A stretch of DNA of 64,000 nt, taken from a phage. Positions 19,798 through 44,895 of this stretch are shown piece by piece. The position numbers were made by a program, and so were the translations under genes. Every line of letters starts with the position of its first letter. The first letter of the stretch is position 1. The DNA is taken from assembly GCA_016390365.1 (NCBI GenBank), contig GCA_016390365.1_3043.1; one strand, given 5' to 3'. The notes under the pieces were generated by a model. The model had not been told where the DNA came from. It saw only the letters and a list, made by a program, of their open reading frames with translations, and made no database searches.

Positions 19798-19968
19798 ATG
19801 ATTTACGATATTAGTGTATCAAGAACTCCATCAATGGTTACTATTCCAGCTGAAGAACTAGATCGTCTTCAGAAAATTGAAGAGCTTCTTTGGGAAATTG
19901 AATCTGATTTGCCATCAGGACTAGAATCCTGGATTGATTATGAAGAACTTAATAAGCTTCGGGGTTAA
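19798..19968 (+). CDS. hypothetical small protein
   Basis: start ATG 19798 after SD ggggtaaat. Confidence 0.4.
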   Translation: MIYDISVSRTPSMVTIPAEELDRLQKIEELLWEIESDLPSGLESWIDYEELNKLRG

Positions 19969-20072
19969 ACCCTGGTGGGCGGCTAGATGGGAAACTGTAG
20001 AGCCAGAGCCGGAAGAACCGGTTTACACTGATGAAGAAACAGTATATAATGAACCAACGATAAATGACTTAA

Positions 20073-20576
20073 TTGATATGGAGATGGGACATGATTACAG
20101 TAGATAAGTGGTTTAGAATTAATCGTGTTGATACAGGGCTATGTAATTACTGGCCGGAACTTAGTGCAGGTACTGTCTTTAAAGTTCGTGAACTTACAAA
20201 AGAATGTGAAGATGATATAGAGCCTGATACTGGAATTATTGAAATTGAACTTTCCGACGGAAAGATTATTAACATCTATGATAAGCCAATTACGTATTGG
20301 TGCTTGTGGAATACTGAATCCGTTGAAAATGGCGAAATTGAAGAAGTTGTAGAGAGAACTAGCCAAGATGTTCAGAAGCCTAAAGCCGCTTTTCAAGGTG
20401 AACGTATTTCATATGCATTAGCTAAAGTGGCATTGAAAAAAGATATTGATGATTATGAAGGTAACCTGATGCAAGCTGCGGCAGAATATATTGAATGGCT
20501 TGAAACACAAAATTCTTTTTCTGACCAAAAGATTCGGCAATATAAGCGATTGAATCAAATGTTTTACAATACTTGA
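20073..20576 (+). CDS. hypothetical protein at the pin position (possible protease inhibitor Pin)
   Basis: 167 aa; synteny nrdC-x-x-pin-x-49 as recalled for T4; sequence identity to Pin not verifiable. Confidence 0.5.
   Translation: MIWRWDMITVDKWFRINRVDTGLCNYWPELSAGTVFKVRELTKECEDDIEPDTGIIEIELSDGKIINIYDKPITYWCLWNTESVENGEIEEVVERTSQDVQKPKAAFQGERISYALAKVALKKDIDDYEGNLMQAAAEYIEWLETQNSFSDQKIRQYKRLNQMFYNT
20529..20576 (+). repeat. direct repeat copy 1 (3' coding module ...IRQYKRLNQMFYNT)
   Basis: about 80 percent identical to 20742..20789; flanked by aaaattctttttctgac copies at 20509 and 20584. Confidence 0.6.
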
Positions 20577-20612
20577 AAAAACTCAAAATTCTTTTTCTGA
20601 CAAGGCATTTTA

Positions 20613-20789
20613 ATGAAAACCGAATTGGTTTATACTGAAAAGTTAAATGGCGGTAAGGTTTGGAAACTTTTTATTAAAGGACATTCTACGGACCCTCATA
20701 TGACCACTTGCGTAGGAACCTATTCTCGTCCTACTAAAAAGATGATTCGACAGTATAAACGATTGCATCGAATGTTTTACAATACTTAA
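20613..20789 (+). CDS. hypothetical small protein sharing C-terminal module with upstream gene
   Basis: 58 aa ending MIRQYKRLHRMFYNT; not in ORF track. Confidence 0.35.
   Translation: MKTELVYTEKLNGGKVWKLFIKGHSTDPHMTTCVGTYSRPTKKMIRQYKRLHRMFYNT
20742..20789 (+). repeat. direct repeat copy 2 (3' coding module)
   Basis: matches 20529..20576. Confidence 0.6.
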
Positions 20790-20790
20790 A

Positions 20791-20822
20791 AATAATAAAT
20801 ACCCTTATCTATTTAAGGTAAG
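20791..20822 (+). terminator. putative hairpin terminator
   Basis: accctta...taagggt stem followed by ttttatt. Confidence 0.45.
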
Positions 20823-20831
20823 GGTTTTATT

Positions 20832-21305
20832 ATGTTATTGACTGGCAAATTATATAAAGAAGAAAAACAGAAATTTTATGATGCACAAAACGGTAAATGT
20901 TTAATTTGCCAACGAGAACTAAATCCTGATGTTCAAGCTAATCATCTTGATCATGACCATGAATTAAATGGACCAAAAGCAGGAAAGGTACGTGGATTGC
21001 TTTGTAATCTCTGCAATGCTGCAGAAGGTCAAATGAAGCATAAATTTAATCGTTCTGGATTAAAGGGACAAGGTGTTGATTATCTTGAATGGTTAGAAAA
21101 TTTACTTACTTATTTAAAATCCGATTACACCCAAAATAATATTCACCCTAACTTTGTTGGAGATAAATCAAAGGAATTTTCTCGTTTAGGAAAAGAGGAA
21201 ATGATGGCCGAGATGCTTCAAAGAGGATTTGAATATAATGAATCTGACACCAAAACACAGTTAATAGCTTCATTTAAGAAGCAGCTTAGAAAGAGTTTAA
21301 AATGA
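20832..21305 (+). CDS. 49: endonuclease VII (Holliday junction resolvase)
   Basis: 157 aa MLLTGKLYKEEKQKFYDAQNGKCLICQ, matches recalled T4 gp49. Confidence 0.95.
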   Translation: MLLTGKLYKEEKQKFYDAQNGKCLICQRELNPDVQANHLDHDHELNGPKAGKVRGLLCNLCNAAEGQMKHKFNRSGLKGQGVDYLEWLENLLTYLKSDYTQNNIHPNFVGDKSKEFSRLGKEEMMAEMLQRGFEYNESDTKTQLIASFKKQLRKSLK

Positions 21306-42967: not shown

Positions 42968-44395
42968 GTGGTAGAAATTATTCTTTCTCATCTTATATTT
43001 GATCAAGCTTATTTTTCAAAAGTTTGGCCATATATGGATTCAGAATATTTTGAAAGTGGTCCAGCTAAAAATACATTCAAATTAATTAAATCTCATGTTA
43101 ATGAGTACCATAGCGTTCCATCTATTAATGCGTTAAATGTTGCATTAGAAAATAGTTCATTTACTGAAACAGAATATTCTGGTGTAAAAACACTTATTTC
43201 GAAACTAGCCGATTCTCCAGAAGACCATAGCTGGTTAGTAAAAGAAACAGAAAAATATGTTCAGCAAAGGGCGATGTTTAATGCTACGTCTAAAATAATT
43301 GAAATTCAAACTAATGCTGAGCTTCCTCCGGAAAAACGAAATAAGAAAATGCCAGATGTAGGTGCTATTCCTGACATCATGCGCCAAGCATTATCAATTT
43401 CATTTGATAGTTACGTTGGTCATGATTGGATGGATGACTACGAAGCACGTTGGCTATCTTATATGAATAAAGCTCGTAAGGTTCCATTTAGACTCAAAAT
43501 TCTAAATAAAATTACTAAAGGTGGAGCTGAAACTGGAACACTGAACGTTTTAATGGCTGGTGTTAACGTCGGTAAGTCATTAGGTCTGTGTTCATTGGCA
43601 GCAGATTATTTGCAGCTCGGACATAATGTTCTTTACATTTCCATGGAAATGGCAGAAGAAGTCTGTGCTAAGCGTATTGATGCTAATATGCTTGATGTTT
43701 CTCTTGATGACATTGATGACGGGCATATTTCTTACGCTGAGTATAAAGGAAAAATGGAAAAATGGCGCGAGAAATCTACTCTCGGTCGTTTAATAGTTAA
43801 ACAGTATCCTACTGGTGGAGCAGATGCTAATACATTTCGATCGCTTTTAAACGAATTAAAGCTCAAGAAGAATTTTGTTCCAACAATCATTATTGTCGAC
43901 TATCTGGGTATTTGTAAATCTTGCCGCATTAGAGTTTACTCAGAAAATAGTTACACAACTGTTAAAGCCATTGCAGAGGAATTACGTGCTCTTGCTGTTG
44001 AAACCGAAACTGTTCTTTGGACTGCAGCACAGGTTGGTAAACAAGCTTGGGATTCTTCTGATGTTAACATGAGCGATATTGCAGAATCTGCCGGTCTTCC
44101 AGCAACAGCTGATTTTATGCTTGCGGTCATTGAAACCGAGGAGTTAGCAGCTGCTGAACAACAACTTATTAAGCAAATCAAATCACGATATGGTGATAAG
44201 AATAAATGGAATAAGTTTTTGATGGGTGTTCAAAAAGGAAATCAGAAATGGGTAGAAATTGAACAAGATTCTACTCCAACTGAAGTGATTGAGGTAGCAG
44301 GTTCACAACAGATACAAGCTGAACAGAATCGCTATCAAAGAAATGAATCGACTCGAGCTCAGTTAGATGCTTTGGCAAATGAATTAAAATTTTAG
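42968..44395 (+). CDS. 41: replicative DNA helicase gp41 (DnaB-like)
   Basis: 475 aa, GTG start; Walker A GVNVGKS. Confidence 0.95.
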   Translation: MVEIILSHLIFDQAYFSKVWPYMDSEYFESGPAKNTFKLIKSHVNEYHSVPSINALNVALENSSFTETEYSGVKTLISKLADSPEDHSWLVKETEKYVQQRAMFNATSKIIEIQTNAELPPEKRNKKMPDVGAIPDIMRQALSISFDSYVGHDWMDDYEARWLSYMNKARKVPFRLKILNKITKGGAETGTLNVLMAGVNVGKSLGLCSLAADYLQLGHNVLYISMEMAEEVCAKRIDANMLDVSLDDIDDGHISYAEYKGKMEKWREKSTLGRLIVKQYPTGGADANTFRSLLNELKLKKNFVPTIIIVDYLGICKSCRIRVYSENSYTTVKAIAEELRALAVETETVLWTAAQVGKQAWDSSDVNMSDIAESAGLPATADFMLAVIETEELAAAEQQLIKQIKSRYGDKNKWNKFLMGVQKGNQKWVEIEQDSTPTEVIEVAGSQQIQAEQNRYQRNESTRAQLDALANELKF

Positions 44396-44453: not shown

Positions 44454-44636
44454 ATGGAATTGGTAAAGGTAGTTTTTATGGGGTGGTTTAAGAATGAAAG
44501 CATGTTTACTAAAGAAACCACAATGATGAAAGATGACGTTCAATGGGCTACTACTCAATATGCTGAAGTTAATAAAGCATTAGTTAAAGCTTTCATTGAT
44601 GACAAGAAAGTATGTGAAGTTGATTGCCGAGGATAA
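44454..44636 (+). CDS. dmd: Dmd, antitoxin against RnlA/LsoA
   Basis: 60 aa MELVKVVFMGWFKNESMFTKE... matches recalled T4 Dmd. Confidence 0.9.
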   Translation: MELVKVVFMGWFKNESMFTKETTMMKDDVQWATTQYAEVNKALVKAFIDDKKVCEVDCRG

Positions 44637-44637
44637 T

Positions 44638-44895
44638 ATGCATATTGTTTTATTTAAACCTACACCGTATAACATCAGGAAAAATACTCAATTCAAAGCA
44701 CTTATTGCAGATACGTGGGAATTGGTGTTAGATATTCCACCAGAAGAAAGTCCTCCATCTGGTCGAGTGGAATTTATTAAGTTTGCTGTACGTCCTACGA
44801 AGCGACAGATTCGCCAATGCAAAAGATACTTTCGTAAAATCGTCAAGCTAGAGAAACAGTTTGTAACATGTGATTACGCAGAAGTTTTAAAATAA
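44638..44895 (+). CDS. 61.4-like small protein (possibly TifA-like anti-ToxIN factor)
   Basis: start ATG 44638 after SD gagga; synteny dmd-61.4-sp; TifA identity from memory only. Confidence 0.5.
   Translation: MHIVLFKPTPYNIRKNTQFKALIADTWELVLDIPPEESPPSGRVEFIKFAVRPTKRQIRQCKRYFRKIVKLEKQFVTCDYAEVLK

Follow-up and report, generated by a model that had tools for sequence, protein, structure and literature searches.

The window analysed here is a 64,000-nucleotide stretch of phage DNA (NCBI GenBank assembly GCA_016390365.1, contig GCA_016390365.1_3043.1) that belongs to a T4-like myovirus of genus Tequatrovirus, RB32 type. This analysis concerns its gene pin, which encodes a member of the Lon protease inhibitor family, the open reading frame (ORF) of 58 codons lying directly downstream (hereafter the small ORF) and two direct repeats found in this region. 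On the + strand, the gene order is nrdC.3, nrdC.2, nrdC.1, nrdC, two small ORFs, 49.1, pin, the 58-codon ORF, gene 49 (endonuclease VII) and nrdD. The locus is syntenic with those of T4 and RB32, and the 1.5 kb surrounding the repeats displayed 97.5% identity to phage RB32 and up to 99.7% identity to other coliphages.

The pin ORF (20091-20576) codes for 161 amino acids, and the pin region is 97.5% identical to RB32 pin. The product matched the Pfam family Inhibitor_I24 (PF10465) with 155.6 bits (cut-off 27), which identifies as pin itself what the original prediction, made from the sequence of the window, had called the pin-position gene. The ORF listed there begins at a TTG (20073), but the annotated start is the ATG at 20091. 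The window protein is orthologous to T4 PinA (MEROPS I24, UniProt P07068), with which it shares the length of 161 residues, the gene order between 49.1 and 49 and the same C-terminal tail; no difference in kind was noted between the two. T4 PinA inhibits both the ATPase and the proteolysis of Lon (Hilliard et al. 1998, as cited in PMC8835725), and we assign the window Pin as a Lon inhibitor by this orthology. Family profiles did not reach the end of the protein. PF10465 covered Pin residues 4-140 and PHROG 2167 residues 1-146, and residues 147-161 matched phrog_3272 (the family of the small ORF) as well as our own small-ORF hidden Markov models (HMMs), in both cases at positions 44-58. A membership test likewise placed the C-terminal 15 residues outside the Pin family.

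Two direct repeats were observed. The first, D1 (20531-20593 versus 20744-20806; 63 nucleotides (nt), 81% identity, offset 213), was retrieved by direct-repeat search. Its coding part is identical at 40 of 46 nt, and the encoded peptides, KIRQYKRLNQMFYNT in Pin and MIRQYKRLHRMFYNT in the small ORF, have 12 of 15 residues in common. The second, D2 (20503-20525 versus 20579-20601; 23 nt with one mismatch, offset 76), contains the 17-mer aaaattctttttctgac, which starts at 20509 and 20585. The top ungapped direct-repeat score in the interval 20000-20900 was 31, to be compared with a mean of 10.1 (standard deviation 1.0, maximum 13) in 60 dinucleotide-preserving shuffles; D2 would score about 20 and also exceed every shuffle. 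Both repeats are real and far above chance. The homologous 3' coding module proposed in the original prediction was confirmed, and the peptides quoted there were correct; of the two starts given for the short repeat, 20509 was exact and 20584 was one position early, being the preceding c. A simple tandem duplication did not account for the data, since the two repeat pairs differ in offset (213 versus 76 nt) and the second copy has 137 extra nt relative to the pin 3' end, which argues against a plain head-to-tail duplication.

Table 1. Coordinates of the features discussed (positions in the 64,000-nucleotide window).
Feature	Position	Strand	Remarks
Sigma-70-type early-promoter-like site, TTTACA-17-TATAAT	20022..20050	+	11/12 consensus match only; inside gene 49.1, upstream of pin
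pin core, residues 1-146	20091..20528	+	Inhibitor_I24 (PF10465), PHROG 2167
Repeat D2a, pin codons ...TQNSFSD	20503..20525	+	Ordinary pin sequence; kept in all Tequatrovirus pins sampled
Repeat D1a, Pin residues 147-161 (KIRQYKRLNQMFYNT) and stop	20529..20576	+	Putatively captured DUF7279/TifA-type helix fragment
Putative non-coding relic of a pin 3' end, 5' leader of the small ORF	20577..20612	+	D2b at 20579-20601 (former codons ..TQNSFSD-KAF-stop); Shine-Dalgarno AAGG at 20602-20605
Small ORF, 58 aa, = RB32ORF078c	20613..20789	+	Pfam DUF7279; assigned as short TifA paralogue
Repeat D1b, small-ORF residues 44-58 (MIRQYKRLHRMFYNT) and stop	20742..20789	+	Apparently the native copy of the module common to both ORFs
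Intrinsic-terminator-like hairpin and T run	20801..20835	+	Closes the pin/small-ORF unit just before gene 49 (start 20832)
tifA (T4 gene 61.4) orthologue	44638..44895	+	Own HMM match; Pfam DUF7279, E = 8.8e-20, 70.8 bits; near-identical to published TifA-T4

The counterpart of the small ORF in RB32 carries the GenBank note 'similar to RB69ORF087c, JS98orf087c-like, pin'. A tblastn search found the small ORF in 370 phage records, down to about 40% identity, belonging to Tequatrovirus, Gaprivervirus, Mosigvirus, Gelderlandvirus and JS98/JS10-like phages. In pairwise comparisons, the ratio of nonsynonymous to synonymous differences per site (pN/pS) was about 0.1-0.3 both in the first 43 and in the last 15 codons; the tails of the window and of a JS98-like locus (L017), for instance, displayed 9 synonymous and 4 nonsynonymous differences. 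The small ORF is a conserved gene under purifying selection. Its product matched Pfam DUF7279 (PF23945) over residues 7-56 with 62.7 bits (cut-off 24.5); NCBIfam gave no match. The AlphaFold2 model, built from an 18-sequence alignment, reached a confidence score (pLDDT) of 91.6 and displayed three strands (2-9, 15-22, 31-36) followed by a helix (42-56); its best viral structural matches were DUF7279 members of phages S16 and Merlin. A cap and a basic cluster (P40 T41 K42 K43 ... R46 K49 R50 R53) mark this last part of the protein, where T41, R46 and K49 were invariant and P40, K42 and R53 conserved in at least 90% of the 18 family members. A word-indexed search retrieved 10 close relatives, and profile searches added few, with 22 proteins in one and 17 clusters out of 1.84 billion representatives in another. 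These counts describe a small family that is confined to phages.

The relationship of the small ORF to a characterised protein was observed at several levels. TifA (T4 gp61.4) is a protein inhibitor of the type III toxin ToxN (PMC9391042). Its C-terminal helix, in which a conserved Pro-Thr cap is followed by basic residues, binds RNA, and both RNA binding and ToxN inhibition were lost in the P53A/T54A and K55A/R56A/R59A variants (PMC10853763). Like the small ORF, TifA belongs to Pfam DUF7279, is predicted to combine three strands with a C-terminal helix and has the Pro-Thr cap and the basic cluster, and both are small early-region genes among counter-defence genes of T4-like phages. Comparison of the small-ORF family with a profile of nine TifAs (the window's own orthologue and eight published sequences) by hhalign gave a probability of 97.3% and E = 1.9e-11. 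The alignment spanned strand 2, the loop, strand 3, the cap and the helix, and placed P53, T54, K55, R56 and R59 of TifA opposite P40, T41, K42, K43 and R46 of the small ORF. The latter is shorter (58 residues versus 85), has no C-terminal extension and adjoins pin, between pin and gene 49, whereas the TifA gene adjoins dmd. This was also the case in the window, where the tifA orthologue (Table 1) adjoins dmd (44454-44636), both directly after gene 41 (42968-44395). Because this separate, dmd-adjacent tifA is present, the small ORF is classified here as a short TifA paralogue and not as an orthologue. In total, DUF7279 is represented by two intact genes and by the fragment on Pin, as recorded by an HMM scan of the whole window.

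Pin homologues were surveyed at 30 loci of IMG/VR, for which the conserved gene 49.1 served as anchor. Of these homologues, about 20 (137-157 aa) from other T4-like lineages end with ...LE.QL.FSDRAF, FSDRPF, FNSRKF or similar and carry no basic tail; among the 30 loci, small-ORF HMMs matched T4/RB32-type Pins only. As IMG/VR holds five close Pin loci, Tequatrovirus alleles were taken from individual GenBank records. Phages OE5505, Nami, pSs-1, Sa45lw and UFV11 of this genus have a 148-aa Pin ending with ...SFSDRAF, the stop codon of which overlaps the start of the small ORF (TAATG). Many clusters of 148-aa Pins also occurred beside 161-aa ones in a large protein collection, some with cores 95% identical to that of the window. 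One of these unfused 148-aa clusters (P0040, 95% identity) displays the unusual variants of the window protein (ERTSQDVQ, AKV.LKKDIDDYEG), indicating that core and tail alleles have been reassorted by recombination.

Unfused and fused alleles could be compared directly. The former reads, in OE5505, ...TCTGAC CGA GCA TTT TAATG AAAAC...ACTAAAAAG ATG ATT CGG CAA TAT AAG CGA TTG CAT CGA ATG TTT TAC AAT ACT TGA AAATAATAAATACCC; the latter, in T4, ...TCTGAC CGA ATG ATT CAG CAA TAT AAG CGA TTG CAT CAA ATG TTT TAC AAT ACT TGA AAATAATAAATACCC. The T4 sequence equals the unfused one from which 138 nt (46 codons) have been taken out, apart from two later substitutions; the downstream stop and terminator are identical. 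T4 PinA is composed of Pin residues 1-146 and small-protein residues 44-58, the latter representing the last three quarters of helix 42-56. The position of the junction was the same in all fused alleles, which differed by point changes only (CGA ATG in T4, CAA ATG in RB32 and ECML-134, CAA AAG in T6 and the window), and this common position fits one origin of the fusion.

The tail is considered native to the small ORF because the whole ORF, tail included, matches DUF7279, aligns with TifA and folds confidently, and Pin is considered the recipient because its profiles stop at residues 140-146 and its homologues outside the T4/RB32 group lack the tail. Tailed small-ORF homologues were also found where no pin is present (SHSML-52-1, Gelderlandvirus) and, in phiC120, as a second copy upstream of pin. 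Since tailless homologues occur in about 20 sampled lineages outside the T4/RB32 group, the unfused Pin is regarded as the older form. In the ancestral state, pin would thus have ended with ...SFSDRAF, its stop overlapping the start of the small gene (TAATG), an arrangement that persists in many T4-like phages. An in-frame deletion of 138 nt in one Tequatrovirus lineage would then have taken out the final two codons of pin along with codons 1-43 of the small gene, so that Pin residues 1-146 became continuous with the terminal 15 residues of the small-protein helix, giving rise to the 161-residue T4 PinA. The last 15 residues of PinA would, in other words, be a foreign fragment that most Pin homologues lack. 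We estimate the probability of this account as a whole, the fusion together with the assignment of the small gene, at roughly 0.8, and regard it as the best explanation. All the kinds of components it involves (a TifA-family protein, PinA and microhomology recombination) are known. Yet the chimeric origin of the PinA C-terminus and the pin-adjacent TifA paralogue appear not to have been described before: our literature search found no paper mentioning DUF7279 and none linking TifA and PinA.

The window further displays a fused pin, a relic of pin, an intact small ORF and the terminator that directly follows pin in T4. The stop of the fused pin (20574-20576) is followed by AAA and then by AACTCAAAATTCTTTTTCTGAC AAG GCA TTT TAATG, and positions 20579-20612 are collinear with the 3' end of unfused pin (..TQNSFSD-RAF-stop) and with the small-ORF start that overlaps this stop, as found in OE5505, Nami, pSs-1, Sa45lw and UFV11. 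The 17-23 nt repeat is no element in its own right and corresponds to this leftover 3' end. Within the relic, the window has AAGGCA, and RB32 and L013 have AGGACA, in place of the former codons CGA GCA; either change provides an AGG 7-8 nt before the ATG, a gain that is expected if the small ORF gave up translational coupling for a ribosome-binding site of its own. No RNA structure was predicted in the relic leader, its folding energy being no better than that of shuffles (z = +1.06), and the leader was rejected as a candidate regulatory RNA structure on this ground.

The simplest origin of the window type would be one unequal crossover between T4-type and unfused-type genomes, which would have taken place at an A-rich microhomology near the motif CTTGAAA, found in pin and at the stop of the tail. 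The small gene is still preceded by some 30 nt derived from the 3' end of an unfused pin. T4 is able to recombine at microhomologies of 2-10 bp, leading to tandem amplifications and deletions (Srikant et al. 2022, PMC9391042, and earlier studies it cites). These events resemble the present ones by their short A/T-rich junctions, by their outcome (tandem repeats, deletions and gene loss) and by the family concerned (tifA). Unlike the laboratory events, however, those of the pin locus are natural and old, and one of them was in frame, the resulting chimera having spread through much of the genus.

The two tail copies now form direct repeats able to recombine, thereby deleting the small gene again. 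Yersinia phage PST (L049, ~290-350) carries a fused pin without small ORF, in which the D1b allele (CGA CAG TAT AAA ... CGA ... TAA) comes right after the junction. Phage fPS-65 (L050, ~290-350) displays the same gene content, and its tail changes from D1a to D1b in the middle of the repeat, TAA stop included. Both are the expected products of recombination between tail copies in a window-type genome, the small ORF being lost. As to whether relatives carry one or two copies, a point raised by the original prediction, three arrangements exist, with estimated shares of about 57% for the T4 type (fused, without small ORF), 27% for the window/RB32 type (fused, with small ORF) and 17% for the unfused type. 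These shares are BLAST-summary estimates drawn from 60 evenly sampled records out of 439 and from identity bands, not a full census, and architecture counts are inexact because BLAST merges nearby pieces into one place.

The approximate nature of these shares is one of several points that weigh against our account; the others are given below with the subjects they touch. One concerns the order of events, as the divergence of D1 (6/46) and that of D2 (1/23) were not significantly different (p = 0.41). The same origin of the tail is also compatible with a tandem duplication of the segment 'pin 3' end + small ORF' in an unfused genome, at CTTGAAA, with the 138-nt deletion arising afterwards in the first copy. 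Under this scenario, the window type would be the ancestor from which the T4 type derived by recombination between tail copies. Such an order, which the similar divergence of D1 and D2 would suit, is a serious possibility but a rather unlikely one. An exact CTTGAAA is present at both ends of the unit in the unfused arrangement, microhomologies of 6-10 bp give rise to tandem amplifications in T4 under laboratory conditions, and PST and fPS-65 show that deletion between tail copies occurs. Yet one step more than by direct deletion would be required to reach T4, and the tails of T4, T6 and related phages keep the OE5505-type TGA stop together with CGG CAA TAT AAG, not the TAA stop of D1b. Moreover, the junction is longer by three A's than a clean join at CTTGAAA would be, and no genome with two intact tandem small ORFs was seen among those examined.

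On Pin, the tail is most likely a tolerated scar under relaxed selection, because the captured fragment comes without the Pro-Thr cap and the first two basic residues of the helix. The cap and those basic residues are needed for RNA binding by TifA (PMC10853763). When the unfused state was taken as reference, fused tails displayed 5 nonsynonymous and 1 synonymous changes versus 3 and 9, respectively, in small-ORF tails (Fisher p = 0.043), a test that uses few, non-independent alleles. Arg53, conserved in at least 90% of the family, was lost in all non-recombinant fused tails, and T4 has also lost Arg46 (equivalent to TifA Arg59).

The opposite view, in which the tail was retained because it is functional (through nucleic-acid affinity or an extra contact with Lon) and both copies were kept similar by selection or gene conversion, seems doubtful. 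It draws on the intact frame of the tail in every fused Pin seen, which speaks against a mere scar, and on the high share of fused forms (about 84% of Tequatrovirus records). In addition, an M-to-K change at residue 147 brings a further basic residue in the window and T6, and other Pin/DUF7279 fusions were encountered (a Mosigvirus-like 9-residue tail, a read-through DUF7279::Pin protein and a Gelderlandvirus chimera, see below). Yet five of the six changes in fused tails were nonsynonymous and hit family-conserved arginines, the cap and two RNA-binding basic residues are missing, and many natural Pins do without the tail. The copies also differ at 6 of 46 coding positions, with no sign of homogenisation. 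AlphaFold2 performed poorly on Pin (pLDDT 63), the tail falling below 50 with a low-confidence helix, so that its placement on Pin was not readable. Neither Pin nor the small ORF had a sequence match among solved structures, and no PinA structure was found in the Protein Data Bank.

The reading of the PinA tail as a captured scar has practical consequences, since T4 PinA is the reference phage Lon inhibitor and is used as a reagent, and its binding site for Lon has not been mapped in the literature. The 148-aa and 161-aa Pins, built on near-identical cores, provide natural controls for mapping what Lon binding needs. A degron or a binding peptide had also been raised as a possibility for the tail. 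A free peptide of this kind is at odds with its native setting, since in the small ORF it forms the predicted amphipathic helix of a confidently modelled fold. The tail loosely resembles the C-terminal Lon degron of SulA, but this likeness is weak.

The original prediction further held that a local duplication had grafted the C-terminal peptide of Pin onto a new N-terminal domain, thereby creating the small ORF. A local rearrangement was indeed recognised, although our comparison points to the 138-nt in-frame deletion as its mechanism and to the small ORF as the source of the peptide. A role of Pin as donor is highly improbable in spite of the proximity of the copies (213 nt apart in one genome, 81% identical) and of the second short repeat between them, since the peptide lies inside a domain homologous as a whole to TifA, is present in small ORFs of phages with a tailless Pin or without pin, follows the Pro-Thr cap and first basic residues in the small ORF only, and is absent from Pin homologues outside the T4/RB32 group.

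Concerning the small protein, its resemblance to TifA suggests that RNA binding through the basic helix and neutralisation of a host defence factor are its most likely activities. The target is probably an RNase toxin other than ToxN, as the different loop and the different locus suggest a target distinct from that of TifA. The loop of the small ORF comprises 8 residues (23-30), versus about 20 in TifA, where it is thought to set ToxN specificity. Because of this short loop, the small ORF should be considered a member of the family and not be called a ToxN inhibitor. TifA homologues of more distant phages inhibited no toxin tested, and the homologues assayed in the TifA papers were dmd-adjacent ones, not the pin-adjacent paralogue; the small ORF may not be an anti-toxin. 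It nevertheless represents a minimal TifA-family paralogue in several hundred T4-like phages and, being absent from T4, it has escaped genetic study. Given its position among putative counter-defence genes, a new anti-defence specificity may reasonably be suspected for it.

A more speculative possibility, which we consider unlikely at present, is that this mini-TifA acts as a second, differently targeted counter-defence protein against a host RNase toxin or RNA-bound factor and forms with Pin a two-part anti-toxin-antitoxin module. If so, Pin would block the destruction of antitoxins by Lon and the mini-TifA would disarm any toxin that is nevertheless released. In that case, the recurring fusions of Pin with DUF7279 proteins would be a sign that the two work together, and the helix fragment of PinA might still contribute a contact with nucleic acid or Lon.

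Other features of the region were recorded. Two genes upstream of pin, a 56-aa ORF (19798-19968, RB32ORF081c) matched PHROG 3402 (E = 6e-40), annotated as 'antitoxin from a toxin-antitoxin system'. Together, pin, the TifA-like ORF and this PHROG 3402 ORF hint, circumstantially, at a small counter-defence cluster. Pin and the small ORF are bracketed by the promoter-like site and the terminator-like hairpin of Table 1. The hairpin lies directly 3' of pin in T4 and is an annotated terminator in OE5505 and fPS-65. Promoter-like sites were not enriched in the region (10 found versus 7.6 expected).

The pin locus shows high plasticity, and genes of the pin and DUF7279 families persistently lie next to each other. 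A Mosigvirus-like sequence (L053, 1501-1926; Logan contig SRR20302901_2936) displayed an independent fusion of Pin to the 9 C-terminal residues encoded by its own small ORF downstream (...YLERR|FHRDFYNVY), followed by gene 49, and a 191-aa read-through DUF7279::Pin protein was found elsewhere (P0061); each of these two fusions came from a single contig, where an assembly error is possible. In Gelderlandvirus, an ORF (L007, 1742-1897; L020, 2287-2457) combines the first 14 residues of the local Pin (MSLVNKVFEIIEDD) with the C-terminal part of a DUF7279 protein, and the related L023 has a full Pin at the same position. A 142-aa product of an ENA contig (P0054), in which Pin residues 1-83 are followed by a Peptidase_S24 (LexA-like) segment, is probably a chimeric assembly.

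Modular shuffling of hyperplastic regions of T4-type phages by promoter/stem-loop cassettes (PeSLs) was reportedly described by Arbiol and colleagues in 2010. The pin locus resembles such regions in that small early genes are present or absent between conserved core genes (here nrdC and gene 49). Unlike in PeSL shuffling, the recombining sequences are coding ones (the pin 3' end and the tail of the small ORF) and not intergenic cassettes, for which no search was made. The locus would also constitute a compact natural record of microhomology recombination building and removing chimeric genes in T-even phages.

Further rearrangements of pin were encountered in two phages. In the JS98-like locus L017 (1919-2400), Pin is split and the order of its parts is swapped, a 59-aa ORF (Pin 103-152) preceding a 100-aa ORF (Pin 1-79). 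In VR7 (L004, 756-1201), only a C-terminal fragment of Pin was recognisable, followed by a 90-aa ORF without Pin match. The same phage carries a gene for an HNH (MobE-like) homing endonuclease directly upstream of 49.1 (L004, 1-639), which represents another source of rearrangement at this locus.

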